Counted from the stretch's first letter, positions 5,929 through 29,731 are shown. The stretch is 64,000 bases of DNA from Actinomycetota bacterium (GCA_036001425.1 DASYUI010000035.1:1756-65755); one strand, 5' to 3'. Translations and numbers: made by a program. Notes: generated from the sequence alone by a model not told the origin.

Positions 5929-6084
5929 CCTCGTTCCCCCGATATCGACGCCGGACATTCCCGACCGTTCGCCAACGGCTCACGAAAATGGGCATTCCGA
6001 GTCTTGTCTTGGCCCACCCCCTTCTGGTACCGTGGCGCGGTTCTGTGGCCAGCTTGGTCAGCTAACCCGGAGGAAAGCCCGCCC

Positions 6085-8994
6085 GTGGCGTATCCCCAGC
6101 CACACATCGTTCCGGCGAGGATCCGCGTTCCCGCGACCCGCGGACTCCGGCGTGAGCGCCTACTCGGCGCGCTCGACCGGCTCTGGGATCATCGGTTGGC
6201 CCTGGTCGTGGCGCCGGCCGGATCGGGGAAGACCACCCTCCTGTCGCAGTTCGCGTCGGCACTGGAGGGCCCGGTCGCCTGGTACACCGCCGACGGATCC
6301 CACGCCGAGCCCAGTGTGTTCCTCAGCCATCTGGAGCAGGCGGTATGCACGGCCTTCGGAGACGTCCCCCGAGGGTGGGAGTCGGAGGACGCGGCGGCCC
6401 AGTCGCTCGAAGGCTGGGCGGGCACCAGAGGCCTGGTGGTCCTGGACGACCTTCACGCGCTGGAGGGGACACCTGCGGAGGCGGCCCTCGAGCGACTGAT
6501 CGACTACATCCCACCGAACGTGTTCGTTCTGGCGGCTTCCCGCCGGACTCCGGGGTTCAACCTCTCCAGGCTGCGGGTCTCCGGGGCACTCCTCGAGGTG
6601 GGCTCCGACGACCTCCGGTTCCGATCGTGGGAAGTCGAGCGCCTGTTCCGCGACATCCACGGCGAGCCGCTCACCCCTGAGGATCTCGCCGCTCTGACAC
6701 GAGGAACCGAGGGCTGGGCGGCCGGCCTCCAGCTGTTCCACCTGGCGACTCGCGGGAAACCGGTGCACGAGAGCAGGAAGATCCTGGCCGAGTTGCGCAC
6801 GCGATCTCGCCTGGTCCGCGAGTACCTGGCGAGGAACGTCATCGACGAGCTCCCCGAGGCCCTTCGGGCCTTCCTCCTGGATACGTGTGTGCTGGACCGG
6901 ATGTCGGGTCGCTTGTGCGACGAGCTCCTGGGCGTCTCCGCCAGCGAGCTGGTCCTGGAGGAGCTGGAGCGCCGCCAGATCTTCACGTACGGGCTCGAGG
7001 AGGGGTGGTGGCGGTACCACGAAGTGCTGCGGTCACATCTCCAGGTCCAGCTCGTCCAGACGGTCGGCGAGGCCGAGGCTCGGGAACGATACCGGCGAGC
7101 CGGGGAGCTCCTGGAGACGGCGGGCGCGGTGCGGGAGGCCCTGCAGGCCTTCTGCCGCGCGGAGGACTGGGACGCGGTCGACCGGCTCCTGGGGAAGGAA
7201 GGCGAGCTTCTGGCCGATGGTCCCGACGGGTGGCTGGATCTCGTTCCCTCGGACCTCCGGGAAGACGACCCGTGGGTCCTCCTTGCCGCCGCCCGCAGAG
7301 AGAGAGCCCGGGGCAGGTGGCACCCCGCTCAGGAGGCGTACCAGAAAGCGGAGCGGGCGTTCGGGGGTGCCGGCGCGGCGGAGATCTGCCGCGCAGAGCG
7401 CCAGGCCCTGACCTCCTGGATGGAACCGGCATTCGTCCCCATCGACACTCCGTCGGGGGCCGTCCGAGCCGCGGTCTCGCGCGAGCCGCTCCGGGCGAAG
7501 GGATCGTGGCCCGGCGCTCAGGGGGCCCTTGCCCGAGGGATCTGCTCTCTGCTCGCCGGCCAGGTGCTGGACGCCAGACCCGTTCTTCTTTCGGTCGGCG
7601 ACCACCCGGACGCCAGCCCGAGCCTGGTGGCGGGAGCCCGGCTCGCTGCCGCCCTGGCGGCCATGCTGGCCGGTGACCCTGGTGGCGAACGCGAAACCGA
7701 AGCTGCGGCCGAGGAGGCCGAACACCTGGGTATCCTCTGGCTGGCGCGCCTGAGCCGAGCCTCTCTGGCCCTGTCGGACCGCCCCGACGGAGCGTCCGAA
7801 GCGGCGGCGGCTCGGTTGGCGGGCGAGCGCCGGGGCGACCAGTGGGGAACCTCCCTGGCCGCGCTGCTCGAGGGCATGGGGGCGCTCCGGATCGGCGGGA
7901 GCCCGACCGCCGTCCTGGACGTGGCCGTTCAGGGGTTCCGTCACCTGGGTGCGGGGACGCTGGAGGCCTGGGCCCGATCCGCCCATGCGCTGGCGGTGGC
8001 GCGGACCGGAACACCCGAGGCCCGGCAGACCGCTCTCCAGGCTGAGACCTTCGCCCGGGCCGCCATGGTTCGGGGCGCGCAGATGATCGCCTTCCTGGCC
8101 CTGGCGCAGGCTGATCCCGCTCGGGAAGGTGAGCACCGAGCCGTCGCCATGGAGATCGCCAACGAGTGCGGTCTTGCGTTGCCAGAGCCTCCGAGTGCCA
8201 CCCAGGCTCCGTCGGCCCCGTTCCAGATCTGGTGCTTCGGGAGGTTCTCCCTGACGATCGACGGAAAAGCGGCGGACCTGTCGAGCCTTCGGCCACGGAT
8301 CCGCAGGCTGCTTCGGCTCCTGGCCATGGGCGCCGGAGCCCCGATTCATCGAGAGGTCCTCACCGAGGCCCTGTGGCCGGGGGCCGACCCCGAGACCGGT
8401 GGCCGGAACCTCCACGTCGCGATCTCCACGCTCCGGCGCGTGCTGGAGCCGGACCTGCCCAAGGGTGCCGGCAGCCTCATCCTCCGCGAAGGTGAGACCT
8501 ACCGCTTGGCGCTGCCGGAGGACACCTTCGTCGACGTGCTGGAGCTCGATGACCGCTTGGTCGCCGCCCGGGGTGCCCTGGCCCGGAAGGACGCGGAGAC
8601 AGCACTGACGGAGTTCCGCCGGGCCATGGCCTTCTACGTCGGGGACCTGCTGCCGGAGGAGGGGCCCGCCGAGTGGATCGTGGGAGAACGGGAGCGGAGG
8701 CGCCTCGACGTCTCCGAGCTCGCCGGGGCCCTGGCCGAAGCGTTATTGGTCGCGGGCGAGCCCGGCGAGGCCGCGTGGGTGTGCCGGCGGGGTCTCCAGG
8801 TGGACCGGTACCATGATGCCCTGTGGCGCACGCTCGTCCGCGCCTGCGACCAGGCCGGCGACCCCGTCGCCTCAGCCCGGGCGGGCCGCGACTACCAAGC
8901 GCTTCTCCTGGAGCTCGGGCTCCCGCCGTCCTCGAACAGCCAATCGGAGTCTGACGTGGGCGTCGACCCCGACCGGGCTCTTAACAGCTCTTAG
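6085..8994 (+). CDS. MalT-like STAND ATPase with C-terminal SARP module (OmpR-type wHTH + BTAD)
   Basis: Walker A 'VVAPAGSGKTTLLSQFA', Walker B 'LVVLDDLH', and MalT-like 'TEGWAAGLQLF'. The central part is Ala/Leu-rich and TPR-like. C-terminus has 'FQIWCFGRFSLTIDGKAADL...REVLTEALWP...LHVAISTLRRVLEP' (wHTH) and 'DRYHDALWRTLVRACDQAGDPVASARAGRDYQALLLELGLPP' (BTAD). GTG 6085 is preceded by GGAGGAAAG. The ORF-track start at 6004 is an alternative. Confidence 0.85.
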   Translation: MAYPQPHIVPARIRVPATRGLRRERLLGALDRLWDHRLALVVAPAGSGKTTLLSQFASALEGPVAWYTADGSHAEPSVFLSHLEQAVCTAFGDVPRGWESEDAAAQSLEGWAGTRGLVVLDDLHALEGTPAEAALERLIDYIPPNVFVLAASRRTPGFNLSRLRVSGALLEVGSDDLRFRSWEVERLFRDIHGEPLTPEDLAALTRGTEGWAAGLQLFHLATRGKPVHESRKILAELRTRSRLVREYLARNVIDELPEALRAFLLDTCVLDRMSGRLCDELLGVSASELVLEELERRQIFTYGLEEGWWRYHEVLRSHLQVQLVQTVGEAEARERYRRAGELLETAGAVREALQAFCRAEDWDAVDRLLGKEGELLADGPDGWLDLVPSDLREDDPWVLLAAARRERARGRWHPAQEAYQKAERAFGGAGAAEICRAERQALTSWMEPAFVPIDTPSGAVRAAVSREPLRAKGSWPGAQGALARGICSLLAGQVLDARPVLLSVGDHPDASPSLVAGARLAAALAAMLAGDPGGERETEAAAEEAEHLGILWLARLSRASLALSDRPDGASEAAAARLAGERRGDQWGTSLAALLEGMGALRIGGSPTAVLDVAVQGFRHLGAGTLEAWARSAHALAVARTGTPEARQTALQAETFARAAMVRGAQMIAFLALAQADPAREGEHRAVAMEIANECGLALPEPPSATQAPSAPFQIWCFGRFSLTIDGKAADLSSLRPRIRRLLRLLAMGAGAPIHREVLTEALWPGADPETGGRNLHVAISTLRRVLEPDLPKGAGSLILREGETYRLALPEDTFVDVLELDDRLVAARGALARKDAETALTEFRRAMAFYVGDLLPEEGPAEWIVGERERRRLDVSELAGALAEALLVAGEPGEAAWVCRRGLQVDRYHDALWRTLVRACDQAGDPVASARAGRDYQALLLELGLPPSSNSQSESDVGVDPDRALNSS

Positions 8995-11098
8995 AGCGGA
9001 ACTCGATCTCCGTCAGCGACAGCGCGTTCCCTGCCTGTCCCTCGTAGACGGAATCGATCCGGATATCGATCCTCTTGGTCCCGGCGCCCGAAACCTCCAC
9101 GGGCTGGGGTGCCTTCGTGTCTCCGAGCGTCTCCTTCTCGGTCGCAACGACCCGTCCCCTCGCGTTGATGAACCTCATGGTGATCTCGGCGGGCCGCGGC
9201 TGCTTCGCGAAGCTCTGAGGCGTCTCCTGGTTGCCGGTGGTGAAGATCATCTGGGCGATGTCAACGGGTTCGTTGAAGAGGATCGAGATCCTCTCGCCGG
9301 TTCCGTCACCCGGACCCGATTCCGCCCAGTGGGTGTTGTTCCCATCGTCGATCAAGAGGCTGGCGGGATGTCCTTTCTGCCCCGGGGCCTCTGCGCGGAG
9401 GGCATGGACGGGATTGAAGTCCGGGAAGGCACGAATCTTCACCGCGCAGTACGCACCCTGGACCCCGGAAAGGATCGCCCCTCGCGCGCTCGGGATGACC
9501 ATGCCGCCCGCCAGGCCCAGCAAGGCCAGGACGGCGACGAGCATCCGCAGCTTCCCGAGCATGCCCAGGATCTGCCGGAAGCCGCGCCTCGCGGTCTTGC
9601 CCTTCTGGCCGGCCTTGGCTCGGCCCCGCCGGGTACCGGCCGCCATGGGCTTACGCCCGAAGATCCGCTTATACCAGGGGACCTTCTTGGCGACCTCGGC
9701 CGCCAGCAGCGTGTTCGCGCACCGCCGGCAGAACTTCCGATCGCGGTCGTTGACCTCACCGCACTGGCCGCAGATGAGGTCGCCCGGCTTGGGCTGCCGG
9801 GTCGGCTCCATCTTCACCTGTTGCCTGGCGCGCTTTTCCCTTTGCGCGGCGGGCTTCTGGGCCCCAGGTGTCCGGGCCGCCACGTCCGGGGTGGGAGCCG
9901 TGGGGGGCTTGGCCACGAGCGCCGCCGCCCGATCCGTCCGCTCCTGCTCCTCGGCCTCGGCCAGGAGGCGCCGGGCCTCCTCGTCCTCGCGATGCCGCTG
10001 TGCCTCTTCTTCGGCGCGCTTCCTGGCCTCGGCTTCGGCGCGCTTCCTGGCCTCGGCTTCCTTGCGGGCCTTGGCCACGGCCTCCGCACTGGCCACCATG
10101 GATGCCGCCTGGGAGCGCCGCCGCTCCTCCTCGGAAGCCGCCTGGGTGCGCCGCTGCTCCTCCTCGGAGGCCGCCTGGGAGCGCCGCTGCTCCTCCTCGC
10201 GGGCCTTGCGCTCGGCCTCCTCACGCTGCTTGGCCTCGAACTCCTGGCGGGCCTTGGCCTCCGCTTCTTGCCGCTGCTTGGCCGCCTCCTCCTCACGGAC
10301 CTTGCTCTCGGCCTCCTCACGGGCGTTACGCTCCGCCTCCTCACGAGACCTGCGCTCCGCCTCATCACGCTGGCGGCGGGCCTCCTCCTCGGTGAGCCTG
10401 CGCTCCGCCTGCTCGCGCTCCCTGGCCTCGGCCTCCTCACGGGACTTGCGGTCGGCCTCCTCACGGGACTTGCGGTCGGCCTCCTCCCGGGCCTTGCGCT
10501 CGGCCTCCTCGCGCTCCCGAGTGACCTCGGGGGTCTCGACCTCCGGAACGACCACGGCCAGCTCGGGCTCCGCGGTCTTCACCGACGTGTCCTCAGCGGA
10601 CGCGGCCGGGGCCTCCCCCGTGGACGCCGCGGCCGGCATGGGCCGGGTCACGTCCCGCCGGGGAGGCTCGATCCGTGGCGACCCCGCCGGTTGCGACGGG
10701 CTCACTGTGGGTGCTGTGCCGGAAGCACCCTGCCGTTCCGCGGCCGTGTCCGGTGGCCCGGTTCCTGTCGGGGCAGCCGGTTCGGCATCAACCACAGGGG
10801 TCTCAGGAGCACCCTCGCCGGCGCCGCTCTCCGCGGCGGGCTGCTCAGTGGGCGGAGCCTGCGGAGTCGTTCCGGTCTGTCCGTCGGGCTGGTCTTCGTC
10901 GCCGATCCCCAGGGTGGACTTCACGCGATCCATGAACCCCGCCTTTTCGGGCTCGGGTTCGGGCTGGGATTCGGGCTCGGGTCCGGGCTCCTGCTCCTCG
11001 GTCAGCCTCTCTCCGGCCCACTCGAGAAACGTTCCGCACGAGCCGCAGAACGCGTCGTCGTCCTCGTTCTGGTAGCCGCAGTTCTTACAGATGATCAT
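8981..11098 (-). CDS. zinc-ribbon / charged coiled-coil / zinc-ribbon / TM / discoidin-like (galactose-binding-like) membrane protein; last gene of the CIS operon
   Basis: N-terminal 'CKNCGYQNEDDDAFCGSCG'. About 200 aa of E/R/K/A repeats ('EAERKAREEADRKSREEA'). Second ribbon 'CGQCGEVNDRDRKFCRRC', a basic stretch, then TM 'LRMLVAVLALLGLAGGMVIP'. C-terminal 'LLIDDGNNTHWAE...ISILFNEPVDIAQMIFTTGN...IDIRIDSVYEG...LSLTEIEF' looks like F5/8-type-C. Its ATG overlaps the stop of the gpI-like gene (ATGA at 11095-11098). Confidence 0.85.
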   Translation of the reverse strand: MIICKNCGYQNEDDDAFCGSCGTFLEWAGERLTEEQEPGPEPESQPEPEPEKAGFMDRVKSTLGIGDEDQPDGQTGTTPQAPPTEQPAAESGAGEGAPETPVVDAEPAAPTGTGPPDTAAERQGASGTAPTVSPSQPAGSPRIEPPRRDVTRPMPAAASTGEAPAASAEDTSVKTAEPELAVVVPEVETPEVTREREEAERKAREEADRKSREEADRKSREEAEAREREQAERRLTEEEARRQRDEAERRSREEAERNAREEAESKVREEEAAKQRQEAEAKARQEFEAKQREEAERKAREEEQRRSQAASEEEQRRTQAASEEERRRSQAASMVASAEAVAKARKEAEARKRAEAEARKRAEEEAQRHREDEEARRLLAEAEEQERTDRAAALVAKPPTAPTPDVAARTPGAQKPAAQREKRARQQVKMEPTRQPKPGDLICGQCGEVNDRDRKFCRRCANTLLAAEVAKKVPWYKRIFGRKPMAAGTRRGRAKAGQKGKTARRGFRQILGMLGKLRMLVAVLALLGLAGGMVIPSARGAILSGVQGAYCAVKIRAFPDFNPVHALRAEAPGQKGHPASLLIDDGNNTHWAESGPGDGTGERISILFNEPVDIAQMIFTTGNQETPQSFAKQPRPAEITMRFINARGRVVATEKETLGDTKAPQPVEVSGAGTKRIDIRIDSVYEGQAGNALSLTEIEFRSKSC

Positions 11099-11871
11099 TC
11101 AGCGGGCACCTCACCTTCTCCGTTCGGAGTTTCCTGATCCAAGTTCCCCGGGGCGACGGTCTCGGTCTTCGGGCTCTCGCCTGCCTCGGGCTCTGGCTCG
11201 GGCTTGGCGGGGGGAAGCTCGACGCCCGTCGGGGTCTCCCCCGTCTCTGGCTCGGGCTTCGCGGGGGCAACCTGGCCGGCCTTCGGCGCCTCCGGTTCCC
11301 CACCCTTCGGCCCTGGCTTTGCAGGTTCGCGCCCCGGACCGACCAGCTCGATCTGATGCAGCACGTGGGCCGGCTTCGCCGCTCGGATGATGGCGTCGAG
11401 CCGGTCGACATCCACTGCCGAGCGATCGGGCACCCTGAGCCGGATCGTGAACCTCGGCTCGGGCTCACCCGGTACCCTTCCGTTCGGGGTGGGCGACCAC
11501 TCCACCCCGCCGGTGTCGACGATCTCCGGCTCCACCCCCGCGTACAGGGCAACCAGGGCGGAGACTCCCTTCACCGTCCCTCGCCACCGGTACAGCTCCA
11601 CGGCCTCGGCCACGAAGGTTCGCTGCCGCTCGAGGGGCCAGTTCTCGTCGAGCACCACGCCCACCCACCCGGCGAGCCACTCGAGGAAGTCTGTCGGGGT
11701 CAGCTTCGGATCCAGGTACGCGACCAGATTGTCCAGCGTCGATGGAAGGGGAGCCAGTACCGAGTCGAGTGCGGACGTGAACCGCTGGGTGAAATCGTCC
11801 TCCTGGTAGACGGCCGGGAGCGCCACCCCGATCGGGTGAGGGTTCGGAAGTTCCTCGATGATCCCTCGCAC
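11095..11871 (-). CDS. short phage-tail-protein-I-like baseplate protein (Afp12 N-domain-like) with P/E-rich tail
   Basis: 'LPAVYQEDDFTQRFTSALDSVLAPL...FLEWLAGWVGVVLDENWPLERQRTFVAEAVELYRWRGTVKG' is P2 gpI-like. The tail is 'AKPEPETGE...PAKPEPEPEAGE'. GTG 11871 has AAGGAG 9 nt upstream. GTG 11940 and TTG 11973 are alternative starts. Confidence 0.8.
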   Translation of the reverse strand: MRGIIEELPNPHPIGVALPAVYQEDDFTQRFTSALDSVLAPLPSTLDNLVAYLDPKLTPTDFLEWLAGWVGVVLDENWPLERQRTFVAEAVELYRWRGTVKGVSALVALYAGVEPEIVDTGGVEWSPTPNGRVPGEPEPRFTIRLRVPDRSAVDVDRLDAIIRAAKPAHVLHQIELVGPGREPAKPGPKGGEPEAPKAGQVAPAKPEPETGETPTGVELPPAKPEPEPEAGESPKTETVAPGNLDQETPNGEGEVPAE

Positions 11872-11956
11872 GGCCCCGCGCTCCTTGCTCAGCTCCCAGG
11901 TCCAGGGGGCGATGTTACCCCGCCCTGGAACACCCGTCACTCCCCAATTTTGCTGG

Positions 11957-13906
11957 TTACATCCCCTCCACAAGTACCTGATGCTCGTACGAGAACACCA
12001 GGGCGTGCGGCTCCAGCTCGATCCGAGGCATGGCCTTCCCGCGCTCGCCGGTGATGGGGTCCGCCGAGAACAAGCGAGCGTCCTCGACGAGCTCCACCCC
12101 CTTGAGGCGCTGGAGAACGGAGTAGACCTCCCCCGCCTGGACGGGCCGGCCGAACGGCCATCCCTTGCCCTCCGGCCCTCCCTTGATCGGATGGAAGTAC
12201 CGGTACAGGGCCCCGATCGCTGCCTCTTGCAGCCGCCTCGGGCTAGTCCGCGACCGGGCTCGGAGCCGGGCCACCACCGTGATCCCCTGGTACACCGGAG
12301 GCTCCACGATGACTCGGGCCCCGATGATCCGCCGCTCGTCGAGGGACTCCGCCATCCGCTGGAGTGTCTCGTCGGCCGGGACCAGTTGCTCGAACCGTAG
12401 CCTGCCCACCTCGTCGTCGGCGGCCGCCGGAACGACCAGGATGCGGACGCCTCCGGCCTCGGCGCCGTCTCCGGCAGCCACGCAGCGCACCCGAGCCACC
12501 TCGGGAGCGGACTGACGCGCCAGCTCCTCGTAATCCTCTGCCGTCACCGCCCGGTTGCGGGTCCGGAACACGATCGGGCCTCGCGCCTTAGCGTTCTCGA
12601 TGTCCTCCCCCTCGACTCCCCCGCCGGCCGGATAACGGTTCTCCACCCGAGAGATGTATGGGATCGTCGTCTTCAGCACGGAGATCTCCCCCCGGGCGAC
12701 GTTGCCCCTGGAGCCGCCACCGGTTCGGTACGTCCGGATCCGGAGCGGTGAGGCCGTGGGCGGAACCGCCCCGAATTGGCGCAAGGTGCCTTCGGGCTCC
12801 CGGACGGCAGGCCCGAGGATCACTTCGCCCGTCACCTCGTCGAGGATGAAGTGACGGTCCTCCGGGCCGCTGTCCGCGAAGTTCTCGACCTGCGTCCATT
12901 CCTGCCATCCCTCTCCGCTTCCGGACTCCAGAACCACGGCTCCGTCCCCGCGGACGACGGGCCGGTGCTTGAGCGTGAACCGTTGCCCCGGGACTCCCTC
13001 GGAGAGGCCGATGATTTCGCCCTCGACGACTTCCGCGTTCAACGCCTCGGTCGTCCCGCCGATCGTGAAGGCCGAGAGGTTCCTGATCTTGGGCGAGGCG
13101 CTGTAGAAGGGCTGCTCCTCTTCGGGCTCGAGCACTCGGCAGCGCAGCCACCCCGCCCGCTGCCGGTCGATCACGGATGCCACATGGGTTCGGGGAACGT
13201 GAAGAACGACGTCCCCCGCCTTGTTCAGCCCTCCGGTATCGTCGTGGTCGACCTCACAGGGAACCCACTGCTCCCCGTCCCACGCCTCCCACACCATCGG
13301 GGGGTTCGTCGGGTCTACGCCGACGCCCTCGACCTCGCAGACGAACCGCAGCGACACGGCGCAGGACGGAACCGGGTTCGAGAGTCCCACCAGCATGACG
13401 TCCCCCGGTTTCGGCGGGTTGGTGAAACAGTAGAACTCCTGGCCCTTGAGGAGCGCATCGGTGTGGTCCCTGATCTCGTTCTCCTCGATGGAAGAAGCCA
13501 GGCGTTCCAGCGAGCACGACACGATGGGCAAGTCCGATATCGTCGTAAAGGTGACGGGCTCCTCCCCGGTGGTCCTTTCCGTTGCCACCTGAGTGCCCGA
13601 GGAGACCTGCAGCGTGGTCTCATGCGCGCCCGAGAGCCAGAAGGTCACCTCAGACCGAGCCGCGTTCGGAGGGAACAGGCGGACCCCGATGAGCTCCAGG
13701 AACTTCACGTAGTTGCGGTCGGGTACACGGTTCACCCGGTAGATAAGCTGCTCGGTCATCCAGGCAAACGTCTCGATCAGCGTCACTCCGGGGTCGGACA
13801 CGTTGTGGTCCGTCCACTCGGGGCATCGCTGCTGGACCATCCGCTTGGCGTCGTCCACCAGCTCCTGAAACCGCCGATCGTCAAGGTTGGGTACGGGAAG
13901 GGCCAT
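11957..13906 (-). CDS. baseplate J-like protein (Afp11 / gp6-like)
   Basis: 'MALPVPNLDDRRFQELVDDAKRMVQQRCPEWTDHNVSDPGVTLIETFAWM' is the typical N-terminus of putative baseplate assembly proteins. Length is 649 aa, and it sits after gp25. Confidence 0.9.
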   Translation of the reverse strand: MALPVPNLDDRRFQELVDDAKRMVQQRCPEWTDHNVSDPGVTLIETFAWMTEQLIYRVNRVPDRNYVKFLELIGVRLFPPNAARSEVTFWLSGAHETTLQVSSGTQVATERTTGEEPVTFTTISDLPIVSCSLERLASSIEENEIRDHTDALLKGQEFYCFTNPPKPGDVMLVGLSNPVPSCAVSLRFVCEVEGVGVDPTNPPMVWEAWDGEQWVPCEVDHDDTGGLNKAGDVVLHVPRTHVASVIDRQRAGWLRCRVLEPEEEQPFYSASPKIRNLSAFTIGGTTEALNAEVVEGEIIGLSEGVPGQRFTLKHRPVVRGDGAVVLESGSGEGWQEWTQVENFADSGPEDRHFILDEVTGEVILGPAVREPEGTLRQFGAVPPTASPLRIRTYRTGGGSRGNVARGEISVLKTTIPYISRVENRYPAGGGVEGEDIENAKARGPIVFRTRNRAVTAEDYEELARQSAPEVARVRCVAAGDGAEAGGVRILVVPAAADDEVGRLRFEQLVPADETLQRMAESLDERRIIGARVIVEPPVYQGITVVARLRARSRTSPRRLQEAAIGALYRYFHPIKGGPEGKGWPFGRPVQAGEVYSVLQRLKGVELVEDARLFSADPITGERGKAMPRIELEPHALVFSYEHQVLVEGM

Positions 13907-17489: not shown

Positions 17490-19541
17490 CTACAGGTCCG
17501 CCAGTCGCCCGGCGCGCTCCCTGAGGTCTCGCAATTCCTGTCGGAGGAGCCGGGTCATCGGCTCGTACAGCTTGTTTGCGAGTTCCTCCATGTCCTCTTC
17601 CTTTTGAGGCTCGGGGGCCACGGCCGTGACCGGAGCAGCCTCCTCGACCCGCTGGACCGGAGCCACCGGCTCCGACGGCGGGGCATGGAAGGTCACGGAG
17701 CCATCCGCCTGCCGTTGGGCGATGCCCGCGGCCACCGCGGCGGTCGCCGGATCGACGATCGGCGCCGGCGGAGCTCCAGGCTCGGCGGGCGCCCTAGAAA
17801 CCAGCGGCATCTCCGGAGCGGCCCTCCACGCCGACTCCATCGAGCGGGCCTCTGTCTCGAGGCCCTGTCCATCGCTCGTCCTCTCGGCGGGCAGCGCGGG
17901 CCCGAGGCGCCGCTGCTGCGCCGCGTGGACCAGATCGTGCGCCACCAGGGTCCTGCCCTCGCTGGCCTCCAGCGACCCATGGTCGGCGGGGACGTGCACC
18001 TCGCCACCGGTGGTGAACGCGCGTGCCGACATCTGGCGCGCCGCCGTCGCGGTAGAGGCTTCCCTGTGGACCTTGACCTCTCTGAGGTCCACCCCCGTCC
18101 GGCGCTCGACCACCTGCCGTACGGGCTCGGGTGGGGCCTCGCTCGCCCGTTGGACGCGAGCGAGAGGCCGCGCGGACACCAGTGGCGCTACCTGGGGCGG
18201 CGGCTGCGGGCGTCCGGTCCACTCGGCAACCGGAGCCTCAAGGGCCCGGGTCGAGGAGATCGGGGCCTCGCCGACCAGCGGTCCGCTTGGTTCGGGAACG
18301 ATGTCCTCTTCCGGCTCGCCGGGGAGTGTCACCGGGCTCGGCGGCTCGGTCGAAGCAGGCGCCTCTTCCTCAGGAGCCCGCTGGGCCGGACGGGGAGATA
18401 CAGGGAGAGGCAGCTCTTCGGGGGCGCCCTGCACGGACTCGCGTGCGAGTGTCCCCTCTCCCGACACCTGCGCCTTCGAGGCTTGTTCTGCGGGCAGCGG
18501 GGTCAGGCGGCGCGGCACGGGGAGGTCCGGCCCCGTCGCGCGGGGCATCGGGGTTCTGCTCACGGTCATCTCCGGGGCGGCCTCCGAAGGCACTTCGGCT
18601 TCCCGCCCTCCTGTCGCCCACTTCCTGAGGACGGGTCTGCCAGCGAGAGGAGGTCCCTCTCCGACGACGGGCGCCACCTCTGCCATCTCTCCCCCCGAGC
18701 CGGCGATCCCCGGCGCTCGCTGGACGCCGTCCGGGCGGGGAGCCGCCATCTCCGCCTTGTCACCGCCCTCCGCCTTCCCTCTGGGAGACAGGGGCAACCT
18801 CTCGTCAGGTGCCGATGGAGTGGCCCTGGCCGTCATTGGCCGGGAGGTCAGCGGCTCGCCGAGACCGAGGCGCCTGCCGATCAGAGGCGCATCGGGTGAA
18901 GGAGCCCGCTGTACCTCACCGGGGACCGTCTCCTCTCCCTCGGCCGTGGCCTTCCCCGCCGCTTCCTCGGGGGCGGGCGCGGGGGAAGGCTCCGCCTCGC
19001 CGACCCGGCTCACCTGACTCGCCGACTCGGTCTCGGGGACGATCTCGGGCTCGGCGTCGCTGGCCGGCGGCTGCTCAGGAGCCCGCTGGACAGGCGGAAG
19101 CGATAGAGGTTGGAGGGAACGAACCGGCTCCACCTCGGGCATGCGGCCGGCCGGGGGACTCTGGGCCTGAGCGATGGGCGCGCGTTGCGCGGCGGCCCAG
19201 GCGTCCTCCGCCCTCGCGACCGCCGGCTCGTGTCGACGGTCCGGCGGGTGGGAGAAGTCGAGCTCGGGTCCTTCCGTCCGGGCTGCGGCTGGAGTCGCGA
19301 TCCCCGTCGCGATTCCGCCGGGGGCCTCGGTTCTCACGTCGTGTCCGAGCGGCTCCAGGAAATGCTCGAGCGGATGACGCGTGCCGAGGTCGTGAACGAA
19401 CCCTTCGGAATGAGCCGAGGGTTCGATGGGATCCACGGCGCGCTGGATGGGAGGCAGCGACCGCCATGCGGCCGGCTCCGAACGGGATGTCGGTCCCGCT
19501 AGAGTCGGAGCCGGCCGAGGTCGGCGAAACGGCCAGCGCAC
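17490..19541 (-). CDS. tape-measure-position protein with DUF4157 (eCIS core) domain and repeated [VIA]QRAP motifs
   Basis: 683 aa, GTG start. The N-terminal two thirds are Pro/Ala/Glu-rich and disordered. DUF4157-like segment 'VERRTGVDLREVKVHREASTATAARQMSARAFTTGGEVHVPAD...LVAHDLVHAAQQ'. C-terminal helix 'EEDMEELANKLYEPMTRLLRQELRDLRERAGRLADL'. It lies between the chaperone-like genes and tube 2, which is the tape-measure slot in P2-like tails. Confidence 0.8.
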   Translation of the reverse strand: MRWPFRRPRPAPTLAGPTSRSEPAAWRSLPPIQRAVDPIEPSAHSEGFVHDLGTRHPLEHFLEPLGHDVRTEAPGGIATGIATPAAARTEGPELDFSHPPDRRHEPAVARAEDAWAAAQRAPIAQAQSPPAGRMPEVEPVRSLQPLSLPPVQRAPEQPPASDAEPEIVPETESASQVSRVGEAEPSPAPAPEEAAGKATAEGEETVPGEVQRAPSPDAPLIGRRLGLGEPLTSRPMTARATPSAPDERLPLSPRGKAEGGDKAEMAAPRPDGVQRAPGIAGSGGEMAEVAPVVGEGPPLAGRPVLRKWATGGREAEVPSEAAPEMTVSRTPMPRATGPDLPVPRRLTPLPAEQASKAQVSGEGTLARESVQGAPEELPLPVSPRPAQRAPEEEAPASTEPPSPVTLPGEPEEDIVPEPSGPLVGEAPISSTRALEAPVAEWTGRPQPPPQVAPLVSARPLARVQRASEAPPEPVRQVVERRTGVDLREVKVHREASTATAARQMSARAFTTGGEVHVPADHGSLEASEGRTLVAHDLVHAAQQRRLGPALPAERTSDGQGLETEARSMESAWRAAPEMPLVSRAPAEPGAPPAPIVDPATAAVAAGIAQRQADGSVTFHAPPSEPVAPVQRVEEAAPVTAVAPEPQKEEDMEELANKLYEPMTRLLRQELRDLRERAGRLADL

Positions 19542-22369: not shown

Positions 22370-23068
22370 TTACGTGGCGGCGGGTGCTTCCTCTTCTTCT
22401 TCTTCTTCGGTGGCCTCTTGGGTGGCGACTTCCTCTTCTTCCTCTTCCGCCTCGCGGCCCACCGGAGCAGTCTGGAGCTCTTCTTCCTCTTCCGCCTCGC
22501 GGCCCACCGACGCTCCCGCATCGCTCCGTGCGGTGACCCTGTCCGCTACCGCGCTCGCTTGCTGCTCGGAGGCGTCGCCGGGGTCGGAGACTTCGAGCTT
22601 CTGCGCAGGCGGGGCGTTCCGCTGCTGGACCACGTGGGTCAGCTCGTGCGCCAGGAGCTTGTCCCCGTCGCCGCTTCCCGGCTGGTACTCGCCGGAACGG
22701 AAGAAGATGTCCTGCCCCGTGGTGAAGGCCTTGGCCTTGACCGACCGTGACAGCGAGTCCGCCTCCGTGTCGTTGTGAACGCGCACGCCGGAGAAGTCCT
22801 CGCCCATGGTTCGCTCCATCTTCTGGCGAGACCCCTCATCCAGGGTCGAGCCCCCTCCTCGCTTGGACTGGATGGCCCGGGCGATGGTGTCGTCGACGTC
22901 CGCTCCCTTCGCCCCCTTCATCTGCACACGTAGCTTCGGAACCAGTCGCTGCATGGCCTGGTTTCCAAGACGGCCCTCGCCGCCGGTCGGGTCCTTCGAA
23001 CGCGCCGCCTCACCCTCGGCGGGCTTCCGCGAGGACTTCCGGACCTCGTCGATGTCGAACGAATCCAT
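22370..23068 (-). CDS. DUF4157 (eCIS core domain) zincin-like protein with intact HExxH and poly-Glu tail
   Basis: 'STLDEGSRQKMERTMGEDFSGVRVHNDTEADSLSRSVKAKAFTTGQDIFFRSGEY...LLAHELTHVVQQ'. The C-terminus carries 'VGREAEEEEE' twice and an EEEEEEE run. Confidence 0.85.
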   Translation of the reverse strand: MDSFDIDEVRKSSRKPAEGEAARSKDPTGGEGRLGNQAMQRLVPKLRVQMKGAKGADVDDTIARAIQSKRGGGSTLDEGSRQKMERTMGEDFSGVRVHNDTEADSLSRSVKAKAFTTGQDIFFRSGEYQPGSGDGDKLLAHELTHVVQQRNAPPAQKLEVSDPGDASEQQASAVADRVTARSDAGASVGREAEEEEELQTAPVGREAEEEEEEVATQEATEEEEEEEAPAAT

Positions 23069-23086: not shown

Positions 23087-25177
23087 CTACAGGCGCGGCG
23101 GGCCATCCAACGCCTCGCTTGTCGACACCAGGTGGAAATATGGTCCGAACTCCGCCTCCACGCACAACCGCCCGAGCTTGCGGTACTCGCGCTGGACCCC
23201 TCGGATGAGGTCCTCCACCGAAACGGATCTCTCCGCGTCCGCCGCCAGGTACGCAGCCGTGACGCAGATGTTCCGGATGTTCCCACCGGAGAATTCGAAG
23301 GACTTGGCCAGGAAATCGAGGTCCAGGTCTCCCTCCCTGGGGACCTCCGGGCTCAGGCACTTCTCCCACAGCGAACGGCGATGTCTCTCATCGGGCATGG
23401 GGAAGTCCACGATGACGTCGAGCCTTCGGGTGAACGCCTCGTCGAGGTTGGCCCTCAGGTTGGTGGCCAGGATGGCCATCCCCTCGAAGGTCTCCATCCG
23501 CTGCAGCAGGTATGCCACCTCGATGTTGGCGTAGCGGTCGTGGGCGTCCTTGACCTCGGACCTCTTTCCGAACAACGCGTCCGCCTCGTCGAAGAAGAGG
23601 ACGCCGTTGACACCCTCCGCCTCGGAGAAGATGCGTTCGAGGTTCTTCTCGGTCTCTCCGATGTACTTGTCCACCACGGTGGCCAGGTCGATCGTGTAGA
23701 GGTCCAGCCCGAGCTCGCCGGATAGCACCTCCGCGGCCATGGTCTTCCCGGTCCCGGACTCACCCGCGAACAGGGCCGTGATCCCCCCGCCCCGGCCGCC
23801 CCCCTTCCGCATCCCCCACTCCCCGAGGACGCGCTCCCGGTACCGCGCCCGGGCGGACAACTCGTGGAGGTGAGCGAGGGTATCGGCCGGGAGGACGATG
23901 TCTTGCCACCCAACCGCCGGCTCGATCCGGCGGGCCAGCCTCTCCAACCCAGCGGCGTTCTGGGCCCGGGCCCCCGCCCTGAGGTCGGTCGGGTCAATGG
24001 ATCGGCCGGCGTAGGAGGCTCGCAGGCGAGCGGCCGTGGCCGCCCTGGCCACCTGTTCGGGGCCGAGGCGGAAGGGGGTCATGACCGCCGCCGCGTCCAG
24101 CTCCTTCGGGGTGTCGCCGTCGAGGTGGGCCCGCCACATGCCGGCTCGCTCCTCCGGCCCGGGGAGGCCGACGTCGACGACCAGCGGGATCTCCCGTGAC
24201 CACATGGGGTCCCAGTTCCGTGTCCCGGTGATCACCACGGGCCAGGGGATCTCGGCGAATGCCCGCACGCCGAGCGCTCCGCGCTCCACGACCTGTTCGA
24301 CCGGCCCCACCACCAGACCAGCCCCTCGCAGGCCCGCCTCGCGCCCCGCCGCTGCGGCGATGGCGGTGGGGTCGTCGTCAACGGTCAGTCGAGCCAGGTC
24401 GAGGGCCAGCGTGGGGATCCCCATCCCGGCGAAGGCGGCCGCGGCAAGCCCTCGTCCCGCGCCCGCCAGCCGCTCCCGCAGGTAGCAGAGCCGCGCGCCC
24501 TCGGCGATGGCGCGAGCCAGGGCCTCCCCGTCTTGCTCGTCCCAGCTGATCGGAGAGGCCAGGAGTGTGGTGAGCGCGTGGTCGGGGCGGTCGTCGCCCA
24601 AGAGATGAGCCGCGACCCGGTCCGGGACCCGCAGGGTCCGCGTGAGGAACGGCCGATCGGGGTCCTCCACCAGGATGAGCCCCGCCTCGACCAGAGGGCT
24701 TCCCCCCTGTAGCCTTCGCCGGGCGCGGGCGTCGGCCGGTGAGGCTCCGCACAGTTCCAGAGACAGGCCCACGCTGGCCCGCCGGCGGGTCACGTCGTCG
24801 TGCAGATACCCGTAGAGGCGTTCGAACCGCGCGTCGAGGTCCGGCGCCAGCGAAACGAGGAGAAGCTCGGCATCGAGGGGCTCGAGATCGAAGGTCTTTG
24901 CCAGGCGCCGGAGCCGGATGTCCTCTCCCTCGGCCTCAGCGGTGTCGGCGGCCTTCTCCACGCGCGACAGGTCCTCGGCTGCCGCGGGATCGGGCGGGGG
25001 CGGTGGGGCCGGGGCATCCAGGAGCTGGTCGACCTGCTCTTCCGTGAGGTAGAGACCACGGAAGGGGTCGTCGGGTTCCGGGTCTCCGGCCCGGCGGCGG
25101 TTGACTGCCGCCTTCACGCGAGCCTCCACGACGGCCAAGCGACCCAGGAGGTGCTCGAGCGATGGAGACGGCTTCAT
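23087..25177 (-). CDS. AAA+ ATPase (Afp15-like)
   Basis: Walker A 'FAGESGTGKTMAAEVL', Walker B 'VLFFDEADALFGKR', and 'ILATNLRANLDEAFTRRLD'. ATG 25177 overlaps the DUF4255 stop (ATGA). The ORF-track extension to 25624 is Arg/Pro-rich, a frame artefact. Confidence 0.9.
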   Translation of the reverse strand: MKPSPSLEHLLGRLAVVEARVKAAVNRRRAGDPEPDDPFRGLYLTEEQVDQLLDAPAPPPPPDPAAAEDLSRVEKAADTAEAEGEDIRLRRLAKTFDLEPLDAELLLVSLAPDLDARFERLYGYLHDDVTRRRASVGLSLELCGASPADARARRRLQGGSPLVEAGLILVEDPDRPFLTRTLRVPDRVAAHLLGDDRPDHALTTLLASPISWDEQDGEALARAIAEGARLCYLRERLAGAGRGLAAAAFAGMGIPTLALDLARLTVDDDPTAIAAAAGREAGLRGAGLVVGPVEQVVERGALGVRAFAEIPWPVVITGTRNWDPMWSREIPLVVDVGLPGPEERAGMWRAHLDGDTPKELDAAAVMTPFRLGPEQVARAATAARLRASYAGRSIDPTDLRAGARAQNAAGLERLARRIEPAVGWQDIVLPADTLAHLHELSARARYRERVLGEWGMRKGGGRGGGITALFAGESGTGKTMAAEVLSGELGLDLYTIDLATVVDKYIGETEKNLERIFSEAEGVNGVLFFDEADALFGKRSEVKDAHDRYANIEVAYLLQRMETFEGMAILATNLRANLDEAFTRRLDVIVDFPMPDERHRRSLWEKCLSPEVPREGDLDLDFLAKSFEFSGGNIRNICVTAAYLAADAERSVSVEDLIRGVQREYRKLGRLCVEAEFGPYFHLVSTSEALDGPPRL

Positions 25178-25890
25178 CGGGAATCGCGGGAGCGGGTGCT
25201 CCTTCCGGCCTTCGCCTGCTTCCCGGCCGGCTTTCGCTCCTCTTCCTTCTCCTTCGTAGCGTCCCCGTTGCCGGACAAGGTGCGCTGCACCCGACCACCT
25301 GCCTGGTCTCGCGTGCCTTCTGGGCCGGCGAGCTTGACGACGGGCTCCGCGAGCACCGGCGGGCCCGCCTCGACCATCCGGCGGGGGTCGAACGGCGCGG
25401 TGATCACCAGGTCCAGTGAGGGCTTGAGCTCTCCGCCAAGTGCGGACCAGACGTCGGAGAGGTTTCGGTCCTTGGGGGGCGGCAGCCCCACCTGAGAGAT
25501 GACGGCCAGCGGCTGGTCGGCCAGCGATCCGACGAGCACGTCTCGAGGCAGCGCGTCGCGACGGAGGAAGCAGGTCAGCACCGCCGCAAGGAGCCGGTGC
25601 TCGTCCTCCGGACGCTGGGTCCACGCGGTGAGGAGATAGGAAAGCTTGAATCGCCGAGGAGGCGGCCGTCGTTCGGTCACCCGGCCGGTCTTGTCCCTGA
25701 TCTCCTCGTACTCGACCTGGCGCCGCTCGAGGTCCTCCCGGATGTCGTACAGGTAGACGCTGACCGTGGGACTGTTGCGGCGGGCCGCCCAGTCCTTCGT
25801 CGGCGCGTCGAACGTCACCTCGACGTCGGCGCCGTTCAGCGCCTCGCGCCGGATGAGGTTCCGGAGCGCCTCATCGACCTCGTGGATCAT
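25174..25890 (-). CDS. DUF4255 / Pvc16-Afp16-like tail terminator (cap) protein
   Basis: 'MIHEVDEALRNLIRREAL...VEVTFDAPTKDWAARRNSPTVSVYLYDIREDLERRQ...FKLSYLLTAWTQRPEDEHRLLAAVLTCF' is the typical Pvc16 N-terminal domain pattern. Confidence 0.85.
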   Translation of the reverse strand: MIHEVDEALRNLIRREALNGADVEVTFDAPTKDWAARRNSPTVSVYLYDIREDLERRQVEYEEIRDKTGRVTERRPPPRRFKLSYLLTAWTQRPEDEHRLLAAVLTCFLRRDALPRDVLVGSLADQPLAVISQVGLPPPKDRNLSDVWSALGGELKPSLDLVITAPFDPRRMVEAGPPVLAEPVVKLAGPEGTRDQAGGRVQRTLSGNGDATKEKEEERKPAGKQAKAGRSTRSRDSR

Positions 25891-26032: not shown

Positions 26033-26659
26033 CTAGATCAGTCCCTGCCGAAGTGCGAAGGCGACCGCGTGGGACCGGTTGCGCAGATGGAACCGGGTGG
26101 TGATGTCGTGGATGATGTTCTTGATCGTCCGCTCCGAGTACGCGAGCTGCTGGGCGATCTCCGCGGTGTCCATTCCTTCGGCCACGAGCTTCAGCACGCC
26201 GAGCTCCCGCTCGGTCAGGCCCGAGAAGGTAAGACCCCGAGGAGCCAGCACATGACGCTGGAGCCTGCCCACCTGAGACAGCAAGCGTCCCAAGAGGTCA
26301 GGTGGAACGGTGCCATCGCCCTGGGCGGCCGCGACCACTGCCCTGGTCAGGATCTCAGGCGTGGCTTCCGAGCGCCGAAGGAGCCCACAGGCGCCCGCCT
26401 CGACCGCCGCCACCAGGCCACCGTCGTCGGGCCGGGCCACGACCAGGACCACCCGAGGACCGCCGCTGCGCTGGATGGCCTTGATGACCCGAAGGGTCTC
26501 ATCGTCGACCTCGTCCGCGGCGACGACCGCGACATCGGCCTGGTCGACCTCGGTCTCGCTCAGGACTTCGAGCTCAGGGCGTCCGCGAAGCTCGGCCGCG
26601 ATCCCCGCCTGTGAGATCGGGTCTCGCGCATAGACGAACACGGGTACGCGCTCCGTCAT
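26033..26659 (-). CDS. LuxR/NarL-family regulator with degenerate (pseudo-)receiver domain
   Basis: C-terminal HTH 'LTERELGVLKLVAEGMDTAEIAQQLAYSERTIKNIIHDITTRFHL'. The N-terminal REC-like fold starts 'VFVYARDPIS', where NarL has 'LLIDDHP'. Confidence 0.85.
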   Translation of the reverse strand: MTERVPVFVYARDPISQAGIAAELRGRPELEVLSETEVDQADVAVVAADEVDDETLRVIKAIQRSGGPRVVLVVARPDDGGLVAAVEAGACGLLRRSEATPEILTRAVVAAAQGDGTVPPDLLGRLLSQVGRLQRHVLAPRGLTFSGLTERELGVLKLVAEGMDTAEIAQQLAYSERTIKNIIHDITTRFHLRNRSHAVAFALRQGLI

Positions 26660-28099: not shown

Positions 28100-29731
28100 G
28101 TGCGGCTCCGCAGCCTCTCCCTTGCCCTCCTCCTCAGCGTCTTCCTAACCGGGCTGGGACTCCCGATGGCCGCGGCCGACCCATCCGATCCGACGCCCGA
28201 CCCAACACCGACTTCGGACCCGACCCCCAGCCCGGATCCCTCCACCGATCCGACCCCGGACCCCCAGCCGACCGTGACTCCGCCCGACGACGGTGGGGCG
28301 GGAGACAACCCTCCCCCCACGCCCCCTCCCGATCAGGACGGCAAGGACGGCAAGAGCGGCAAGGGGAAGCACGGCCAGAACGGCAACCGGGACGGGAAGC
28401 GGAAGAAGGATCCGTTCGCCATGGCCGGGCCGCAAAACACGGCCACGCTCGTGTCTCTGCTCGCCGAGCTGACCCAGCGGGGAATGTCCCTCGAGAAGGC
28501 CTTCCTCAAGGTGGTCGGACCCTTCCCCGTCGCGGGCCTGGCCTGGTGGAGCGACGACTGGCACGCGCCCCGGTGTTGCCCCTTCCCGCACCTCCATCAG
28601 GGCCTCGACATCTTCGCGCCGATGGGCACCCCCTTGGTAGCGGCGGCGGATGGGTACATCAGCCAGAAAGTCAATTCCCCCTCGGCTACAGGGTTCGGCC
28701 TCGAGGTCACCGACGCCCGGAACGTCCAGTACTTCTACGCGCACCTATCGGCCTTCGAACCGGGCATCGAGGTAGGAACCCACGTCGAGATGGGCCAGGT
28801 CATCGGGTACGTGGGTGACACCGGGAACGCCCGGGGGACCATCCCCCACGTGCACTTCGAGCGCCAGCCAGACGGCGTTCCGGCCCCGCCCAAGCCCTGG
28901 GTCGACCGGTGGCTCAGGATCGCCGAGCGGAAGGCCATGCTGCTCGTGCAGGAGGTCACGGGGAGGAAGCCCAAGGTGGAGCGCCTGACCTTCCGGCTCA
29001 CCAGACTGTTCGACCTGGTCGATGCGGAGCGCACCGACCTCGACGACGCGGCCACCGGGGACGCCGGGGAAATCCTCGTGCTGACCGGCCTCCATCCGGC
29101 TGCCACGTACGACATGGCTCGGGACACTGCCGGGGCCATGGCCTGGGAGATCGACTGGGGCGACGAGGCCGTCGACCAGATCGCCACCGGGATCAAGGCG
29201 TATCGGCAGGAGTTGACCGAGCAGACGCTCATGGGCATCCTCCACGATCCCGAAGAGGGGCAAACGGCGATCCCAGCGGGCGGGATGCTTCCCGGAAGCG
29301 AGGATGTGGGCCTGGCCGAAGGCATCGGCGATCCAATGGCACCCGTCGCCACGGAGAGCGGCGCACTGGTCAACGTGCCCTCCGTTCCCGGGGGCGTGAG
29401 CGCGCACGACGGGACCGGCACGGAGGGCAGCCTCCCTGTCGGCGCGCCGGGGGCCCCGGTCGCGTCGGGCAGCCAGGTCGCCGATACGGGCACCGGCTCT
29501 TCGGTTCCCTCGATCGGCAGGGAGAGCGACACGTCGAGCTCATGGAGGGCGGGTGTCGGGCCCGGCCTGGTCAGGGTCCTTGCCCTCTACAGTGCGTTCT
29601 CGACCGGGCTCCCGGGCATGACCCAGACCCTGTGGCACGAGATCCTGGCGGCGGTGCAGGATGAGGGCGCACGCGGCCTCCTGGGAAACGAGACCGAGGC
29701 CCAGTTCCCGGCCGCCGCAGGAAGGCCCTAG
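28100..29731 (+). CDS. secreted M23 family metallopeptidase
   Basis: Signal peptide 'MRLRSLSLALLLSVFLTGLGLPMAAA' and a DPTP-rich linker. M23 motifs 'HQGLDIFAPMGTPLVAAADG' and 'GDTGNARGTIPHVHFE'. The GTG lies 2 nt after the upstream stop. Confidence 0.9.
   Translation: MRLRSLSLALLLSVFLTGLGLPMAAADPSDPTPDPTPTSDPTPSPDPSTDPTPDPQPTVTPPDDGGAGDNPPPTPPPDQDGKDGKSGKGKHGQNGNRDGKRKKDPFAMAGPQNTATLVSLLAELTQRGMSLEKAFLKVVGPFPVAGLAWWSDDWHAPRCCPFPHLHQGLDIFAPMGTPLVAAADGYISQKVNSPSATGFGLEVTDARNVQYFYAHLSAFEPGIEVGTHVEMGQVIGYVGDTGNARGTIPHVHFERQPDGVPAPPKPWVDRWLRIAERKAMLLVQEVTGRKPKVERLTFRLTRLFDLVDAERTDLDDAATGDAGEILVLTGLHPAATYDMARDTAGAMAWEIDWGDEAVDQIATGIKAYRQELTEQTLMGILHDPEEGQTAIPAGGMLPGSEDVGLAEGIGDPMAPVATESGALVNVPSVPGGVSAHDGTGTEGSLPVGAPGAPVASGSQVADTGTGSSVPSIGRESDTSSSWRAGVGPGLVRVLALYSAFSTGLPGMTQTLWHEILAAVQDEGARGLLGNETEAQFPAAAGRP

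Follow-up and report, generated by a model that had tools for sequence, protein, structure and literature searches.

A CisA-like gene beside the baseplate genes of a contractile injection system in an uncultured Actinomycetota bacterium

What is encoded by a gene that directly follows the last baseplate gene of a contractile injection system (CIS), in the slot where tail fibres such as Afp13 and Pvc13 are found, when its product bears zinc ribbons and a predicted membrane span? This question is raised by a stretch of 64,000 nucleotides (hereafter the window) from an uncultured Actinomycetota bacterium known as a metagenome-assembled genome (MAG; GCA_036001425.1, DASYUI010000035.1:1756-65755), in which an open reading frame (ORF) for 705 residues lies behind a Cis12-like baseplate wedge gene (Table 1). 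The predicted protein is 100% identical to the database entry P0001 of an Actinomycetota MAG, where the annotation says only "zinc-ribbon domain-containing protein". A preliminary description had suggested that it could be a membrane anchor or trigger of the CIS. On every sequence-level criterion that we tested, its membership in the family of CisA, the product of SCO4242 in Streptomyces coelicolor, is established, and we believe that it is probably a bitopic membrane adaptor of a class-IId-like CIS that is itself probably cytoplasmic. The core of this idea, a membrane anchor or trigger, was already published between 2023 and 2025; the gene described here confirms and extends it.

SCO4242 is located just downstream of the baseplate genes of S. 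coelicolor. It was mentioned as a possible fibre or adaptor in 2023 (Vladimirov et al., PMC10020575; Casu et al., PMC10066040), before being characterised in 2025 as CisA (Casu et al., eLife, PMC12237407). HHpred places zinc ribbons at residues 5-28 and 221-246 of Sco4242 and a further domain at residues 319-464 (PMC10020575 Supplementary Data 7); the latter matches NADase_NGA (99.7%), 7JI1, APC10, muskelin and F5/8 type C, and comes after a transmembrane (TM) segment that is predicted strongly (PMC10020575). CisA is located in the membrane, with a bitopic N-in/C-out topology according to phoA-lacZα reporters that depends on the TM segment, and is needed for sheath contraction in situ, for stress-induced death and for normal development (PMC12237407). 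A ΔcisA mutant assembles particles but cannot fire them, and CisA itself is absent from the 3.4-3.5 Å structure of the particle (PMC12237407). AlphaFold2-Multimer predicts that CisA binds Cis11 (ipTM 0.71), the contact being predicted between the unstructured cytosolic part of CisA and this surface-exposed wedge protein, and it has been proposed that the C-terminal region oligomerises and that the domain outside acts as a stress sensor or checkpoint (PMC12237407).

The first two protein searches started from the target did not reach Streptomyces. As a search query we used residues 1-310 of SCO4242, taken from the CIF of the AlphaFold3 model that supplements the eLife paper; the database protein P0246, the 468-residue CisA of S. 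lividans, is 100% identical to SCO4242 over these residues. By BLASTP the target aligns with P0246 along 273 columns at 27% identity (residues 443-704 against 223-462, E 1e-19), a tract that spans ribbon 2, the juxtamembrane motifs, the TM helix and the C-terminal domain. An alignment of the family that takes in ribbon 2 and the TM helix as well as the C-terminal part (A1) was compared by hhalign with an alignment of 18 Streptomyces CisA proteins (A2). This gave a probability of 99.95% (E 1.1e-38), and the 231 matched columns reach from ribbon 2 to the C-terminus. In the six-frame translation of the 64-kb window CisA matched only the target ORF, and did so collinearly, with E 3e-4 at the N-terminus and E 9e-15 at the C-terminus. 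Along similar lines, both proteins pass the NCBIfam model NF047619, "NADase-type glycan-binding domain" (79.5 bits for the target and 78.8 for CisA, cut-off 38), and PF13240, PF12773 and PF25302 are found in both. Several other matches were discarded. Those to AsmA, PEGA, TPR and TolA-like proteins (P0056, and P0062 onwards) reflect the low complexity of the E/R/K/A segment described below, as does the weak one to NCBIfam EbpS (22.8 bits against a cut-off of 300). The identification of P0161 from Actinosynnema mirum (373 residues) with Amir_2950 (331 residues), a published reciprocal match of CisA, was left unused as the lengths differ, and that a 331-residue Amycolatopsis cluster contains AMED_4830 was not confirmed.

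The genomic context points in the same direction. The S. lividans genes run gp25, Cis11, Cis12 and CisA, and this is also the order in the window. The ATG of the cisA-like gene (11098-11096) overlaps the stop codon of the Cis12-like gene (11097-11095) as ATGA, and an identical 4-nt overlap joins cis12 and cisA in S. lividans, which bears out the translational coupling to the last baseplate gene that had been claimed in the preliminary description. A GGAGAAGGTGAGG stretch is found 9-22 nt upstream of the ATG. The ORF has a GC content of 85% at third codon positions (GC3) against 53% at second positions (GC2), and so fits real coding. Two long ORFs on the plus strand (8813-11137 and 9231-11075) were dismissed as antisense artefacts of a genome with 68% GC, because homologues, Pfam domains and GC3 all back the minus frame.

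Target and CisA have in common the domain order, the slot directly after cis11-cis12 with the ATGA overlap, the juxtamembrane motifs PWW[KR]R[LI]F and AG.RP, and a NADase-type discoidin domain of ca. 150 residues. They differ in length (705 against 468 residues) and in their linkers, that of CisA being P/A/G-rich and disordered whereas the target has an acidic P/E segment followed by an ER/K helix of 200 residues. Besides, the conserved part of the two proteins is only 27% identical, whereas Cis11 is 56% identical between the loci; a convergent SARP-type regulator follows the target gene and none is found downstream of cisA in S. coelicolor; and the host is an uncultured Actinomycetota MAG in one case and S. 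coelicolor in the other. Intermediates are provided by plasmids of Streptomycetaceae, namely a 662-residue Kitasatospora protein with a poly-acidic linker, encoded in the same slot, and a 320-residue protein of S. cattleya pSCAT that Vladimirov et al. had listed as a homologue of Sco4242 (PMC10020575).

The architecture that had been read in the preliminary description was largely recovered: both zinc ribbons, the linker, a charged helix of ca. 200 residues, the basic stretch, the TM helix and the discoidin domain are all supported, and only the label of coiled coil with heptads is probably wrong (see below). The first ribbon has its cysteines at positions 4, 7, 18 and 21 and is modelled with a pLDDT of 86-89; its pattern, C-x2-CG...FC-x2-CG-x2-L-x-W, is common to SCO4242 and to the Kitasatospora, pSCAT and Amycolatopsis homologues. 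One 325-residue member from Amycolatopsis kentuckyensis (locus L079, 9794-10771) has lost the first cysteine (MVIYAECG...), and this ribbon may be degenerate in some Pseudonocardiales. The second ribbon matches DUF7577 with 24.3 bits, slightly under the Pfam cut-off of 28, but is invariant in 24 homologues, in whose alignment PGDLxCxxCG...R.FCR.C stands unchanged across the family and aligns to residues 223-240 of CisA. The basic juxtamembrane stretch that follows matches PWWRRLF...AGDRP of CisA and brings the net charge to +17 over residues 471-521. Hydrophobic windows of 19 residues start at positions 509-521, the best one covering residues 517-535, and the TM segment aligns to that of CisA (residues 286-307). 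With a charge of +17 on its N-terminal side, the positive-inside rule predicts an N-in/C-out topology for the target; the experimental topology is that of SCO4242 only.

The C-terminal domain had been described as a galactose-binding-like fold of the F5/8 type C kind, and this is supported here. PF25302 (NADase_transloc, F5/8 type C) matches residues 573-700 above the cut-off (E 2e-13), in addition to the NF047619 match mentioned above, and the AlphaFold2 model, built with 24 homologues, has a pLDDT >90 across residues 560-704. Foldseek against the PDB gave 229 matches with E ≤ 0.001, the top ones being APC10/Doc1, CBM32 and F5/8-type-C structures with a probability of 1.00 and TM-scores, normalised to the target, of 0.6-0.77. 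Among the fold matches the highest identity (30%) was to 7JI1, the translocation domain of the Streptococcus pyogenes NAD+-glycohydrolase (SPN). The fold is common to both, as PF25302 and NF047619 also indicate; however, SPN is a secreted toxin with a NADase catalytic domain, whereas in the target the domain would be the ectodomain of a bitopic membrane protein that has no enzyme domain. The family conserves residues D584, N588 and W591.

To what extent are such proteins tied to CISs? In 60 metagenomic homologues, all of them, a zinc ribbon is found at residue 4 and a second one lies ca. 70 residues before the TM helix, with a C-terminal domain of ca. 145-195 residues (ca. 317 in three longer members). 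A narrow pattern scan based on A1 found 306 relatives among GTDB species genomes, and an exhaustive profile search gave 740 clusters at 50% identity (E ≤ 1e-30). For the comparison of loci we used the best 80 loci of the 306 relatives, which come from Acidimicrobiia, other Actinomycetota, Amycolatopsis and MAGs labelled Chloroflexota, Dormibacterota or Limnocylindrales. The CIS proteins of the window served as tblastn probes, and loci were considered informative when the DNA upstream of the family gene exceeded 4 kb. In 54 of these 54 informative loci, two or more of the genes for Cis9, Cis11 and Cis12 were found upstream on the same strand, and those loci in which no CIS match appeared upstream were all truncated just upstream of the family gene. 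The co-occurrence with CIS loci that the preliminary description called for is therefore present wherever it could be assessed, and clearly no unlinked orthologue turned up among the informative loci. In 21 loci exactly 4 nt ([AGT]TGA) are shared by the start of the gene and the stop of cis12, and in most of the others the gap is <300 nt.

A different arrangement was found in seven loci from Acidimicrobiaceae and related MAGs, in which 3.6-6.8 kb are inserted between cis12 and the cisA-like gene. These inserts (loci L010, L029, L040, L044, L051, L071 and L074) hold several ORFs of 250-480 residues, and may be cargo or accessory genes. Regarding the taxonomic range, Casu et al. found homologues in 75 of 120 genomes by reciprocal BLAST, and term counts in their supplement suggest that homologues from Ilumatobacter and Roseiflexus were not found there; a 2026 paper also describes Roseiflexus as being without close cisA homologues. 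Our scan nonetheless recovered family members beside cis12, both from an Ilumatobacter MAG and from many that bear the label Chloroflexia or Dormibacterota, labels that are uncertain for MAGs, and the members from MAGs labelled Chloroflexota and Dormibacterota are a modestly new point.

How such an adaptor would work can be pictured from CisA. The N-terminal part, with ribbon 1, a short motif, the long linker and ribbon 2, would stay in the cytoplasm, the TM helix would anchor the protein in the membrane, and the discoidin domain would be displayed outside. The cytoplasmic arm, carrying ribbon 1 and the motif at its far end, could capture free-floating CISs via the exposed baseplate wedge Cis11, and the discoidin domain might, more speculatively, bind or sense an envelope glycan or a stress cue, and may also cause the protein to oligomerise. 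Sheath contraction would in this way be licensed once the baseplate is recruited to the membrane. The idea of a membrane anchor or trigger is thus supported by the homology to CisA (27% identity), for which the published model is the same. There is a functional analogy, and only that, with TssJLM of the type VI secretion system and with the baseplate extension that anchors the cyanobacterial thylakoid CIS, in that a contractile baseplate is linked to the membrane of the producer. These have no kinship in sequence or architecture with CisA-type proteins, which cross the membrane once, do not form a stable part of the machine and engage it in an apparently transient way (PMC12237407).

Some points weigh against this reading. 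The identity to CisA is only 27%, and the target is known solely as MAG sequence. Even in S. coelicolor the contact between CisA and Cis11 is only a prediction, and any ligand or signal for the domain outside is putative. The ER/K helix has no counterpart in SCO4242, where the linker is P/A-rich, and any role for it is speculative. The cytoplasmic location of the CIS in the window is no more than probable. Finally, the C-terminal domain is seen as solute-binding-like by Casu et al., whereas HHpred, Pfam and the fold search all point to a discoidin/CBM32 fold, so any role assigned to it is tentative.

The slot of the gene, after the wedge genes, is also the one in which an extracellular CIS would be expected to encode a genuine tail fibre or receptor-binding protein, and this was the original "putative fiber" reading of Sco4242. 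Afp13 and Pvc13 share with the target both this slot and a C-terminal fold of carbohydrate-binding type; CBM32/lectin-type folds are used by many receptor-binding proteins, and peptides of Sco4242 were detected in purified S. coelicolor particles (PMC10020575). Unlike those fibres, however, the target has no fibre-type Pfam domain, and a strongly predicted TM helix with its positive flank parts a cytoplasmic N-terminal region from the lectin domain; the membrane of the producer itself would therefore come between the two ends. The homologue CisA is N-in/C-out, and its cryo-EM particle contains neither CisA nor fibres (PMC12237407). The TM helix, the flank of +17, the lack of fibre domains and the absence of CisA from the particle structure all favour the trigger or anchor "rather than a fibre" of the preliminary description, and a fibre appears to us decidedly improbable. 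Even less probable is a membrane-damaging effector or lysis factor that is released or activated when the CIS fires. Full-length CisA is toxic on expression in E. coli (PMC12237407) and a single TM helix with a basic flank would suit such a function, but toxin or holin domains and the architecture of known CIS cargo are lacking, neither its conserved place at the operon's baseplate end nor the discoidin ectodomain suits cargo, and the loss of the homologue results in failed contraction, a step upstream of effector action.

On its other side the target gene meets a 996-residue AAA_16/Trans_reg_C/BTAD regulator of SARP/AfsR-like type (6004-8994, plus strand), which is convergent with it and shares 14 nt with its 3' end. 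Of 62 related loci, 47 have a homologue of this regulator downstream, and in 34 it is both adjacent and convergent, a frequent association that is a modestly new point. The protein might then be an envelope sensor that signals to this regulator in an anti-sigma-like manner and controls CIS transcription without docking to the baseplate; a cytoplasmic zinc-binding domain, a TM helix and an outside sensor do resemble membrane signal transducers. However, no SARP-type regulator is found downstream of cisA at the S. lividans locus, nor in S. coelicolor, and a conserved translational coupling ties the gene to a structural wedge gene. Moreover, that particles form without CisA and yet do not fire (PMC12237407) speaks against a purely transcriptional role, and we consider such a sensor unlikely.

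Returning to the membrane adaptor, the part in which the target departs from CisA is its cytoplasmic arm. Residues 31-190 contain 18% P, 14% E and 14% A and have a net charge of -20. They are followed by a segment (residues 191-400) with 29% E, 21% R, 21% A and 5% hydrophobic residues, and pairs of opposite charge at i/i+4 occur in the ER/K segment at 0.41 per residue. At the DNA level it is made of imperfect tandem repeats of 24 nt (8 residues, x13) and 33 nt (11 residues, x3), the former also scored as 48 and 96 nt, which suggests that the linker grew by repeat expansion. In the monomer model residues 190-391 form one uninterrupted helix of 202 residues (pLDDT 70-92), which would measure ca. 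30 nm if fully helical. The coiled coil of the preliminary description was rejected here: repeats of 8 and 11 residues are not heptads, hydrophobic residues make up 5%, and the model is one straight helix from a monomer. From these same features the charged segment is therefore most likely an ER/K single α-helix (SAH) rather than a canonical coiled coil.

SAH domains of the ER/K kind occur in myosin VI and X and in caldesmon. They are, like the segment of the target, rich in E, R, K and A, poor in hydrophobic residues, dense in opposite charges at i/i+4 and predicted as an unbroken helix; unlike in those examples, the SAH behaviour of the target is a prediction, and its repeats have 8 or 11 residues and derive from tandem duplication of DNA. 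Our literature searches gave no report of CIS adaptors with an ER/K or single-α-helix feature. An ER/K segment of 100-260 residues was found in the target and ca. 40 of the 60 MAG homologues, in a sample that is biased since the query carried such a segment. Elsewhere the linker is different, with ca. 200 residues of P/A/G-rich disorder in S. coelicolor and a poly-D/E tract in Kitasatospora, and this suggests that it is selected for its physical properties (reach, stiffness) and not for its sequence. The variable linker would then be a flexible or semi-rigid tether in which length matters above sequence, consisting in the target of ca. 160 disordered residues and then the ER/K helix of 200 residues. 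As a variant, the ER/K-helix linker is modestly new, interesting but unproven. The Kitasatospora protein is an extreme case. It is encoded in the CIS cluster of plasmid NZ_CP108248 of Kitasatospora sp. NBC_00070 (locus L082, 7798-9786), and the linker of this 662-residue CisA-family member starts with a poly-Gly/poly-Pro tract and continues with ca. 250 residues of almost pure D/E.

Within the disordered part of the linker there is one short conserved motif, GFMDRVKSTLGIG. A related motif is present in 29 of the 60 MAG homologues and in 103 of 106 Streptomyces CisA proteins, where it takes the form TMSDRARSLLVPV and is invariant. The motif of the target is similar to the segment TMSDRARSLLVPVADPE, which is invariant in Streptomyces CisA, and to the segment SRVQSAFFADVG (SRVQSAFF) of Kitasatospora. 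It may be a docking motif for the baseplate, and it too is modestly new.

If the membrane adaptor is accepted, this uncultured Actinomycetota CIS would join the class of cytoplasmic Streptomyces CISs that fire via a dedicated membrane adaptor and not via fibres, and the adaptor family is a large one, found beside baseplate genes in every locus where the linkage could be checked. The natural variation among linkers, which may be P/A-rich, poly-acidic or an ER/K helix, offers, together with the motif, handles on how CisA would recruit the baseplate, a step that is a proposal in the model organism too. A more far-reaching scenario, to which we attach rather more doubt than belief, would make the CisA family the hallmark of membrane-licensed cytoplasmic "suicide" CISs in several phyla (Acidimicrobiia, MAGs labelled Chloroflexota or Dormibacterota), often with a SARP-type regulator. 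In one large clade a tandem-repeat ER/K helix of ca. 30 nm would have replaced the disordered tether as a semi-rigid spacer setting the capture radius or stand-off, and the motif (D/S)R(V/A)(K/R)S..L would be the actual docking site for Cis11.

Table 1. Features of the cisA-like gene and of the adjoining wedge genes (positions in the window).
Feature	Residues	Position	Strand	Basis
cisA-like ORF, 705 aa + stop codon (8981-8983)		8981..11098	minus	ORF list and translation
N-terminal Cys4 zinc ribbon (CisA "domain 1")	1-27	11018..11098	minus	Pfam Zn_Ribbon_1, E 3e-9
Acidic P/E/A/T-rich linker, predicted disordered	28-189	10532..11017	minus	composition; pLDDT mostly <50
Conserved linker motif GFMDRVKSTLGIG	54-66	10901..10939	minus	helix predicted at residues 55-62
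ER/K-type charged helix	190-391	9926..10531	minus	composition and structure model
Second Cys4 zinc ribbon (CisA "domain 2")	437-465	9704..9790	minus	Cys 443/446/457/460
Basic juxtamembrane stretch, PW[WY][KR]R[IL]F and AG.R motifs	466-516	9551..9703	minus	conserved motif
Single TM helix	ca. 517-537	9488..9550	minus	sole hydrophobic segment, Kyte-Doolittle 2.28
NADase-type discoidin / F5/8-type-C β-sandwich, predicted extracytoplasmic (CisA "domain 3")	560-705	8984..9421	minus	PF25302
Tail_P2_I (Cis12-like) baseplate wedge gene, upstream		11095..11973	minus	Pfam, E 1.6e-16
Baseplate_J (Cis11-like) gene		11957..13906	minus	Pfam; 56% identical full-length to S. lividans Cis11

The CIS cluster of the window is complete. 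Cis12 is preceded by Baseplate_J (Cis11), gp25, a VgrG-like spike and two tube-family proteins, and the cluster further includes a sheath protein, an AAA ATPase and DUF4157/eCIS_core proteins. The latter are two, of 683 and 232 residues (17490-19541 and 22370-23068, both on the minus strand), and the ATPase combines WHD and AAA domains (23087-25624). Other members of the cluster are a regulator of LuxR type (26033-26659) and an M23 peptidase (28100-29731, plus strand). Ca. 7 kb past its far end, the window encodes a protein of 2099 residues (32379-38678, plus strand), in which 31 stretches of the RTX calcium-binding repeat (HemolysinCabind) were matched (E 4.5e-168).

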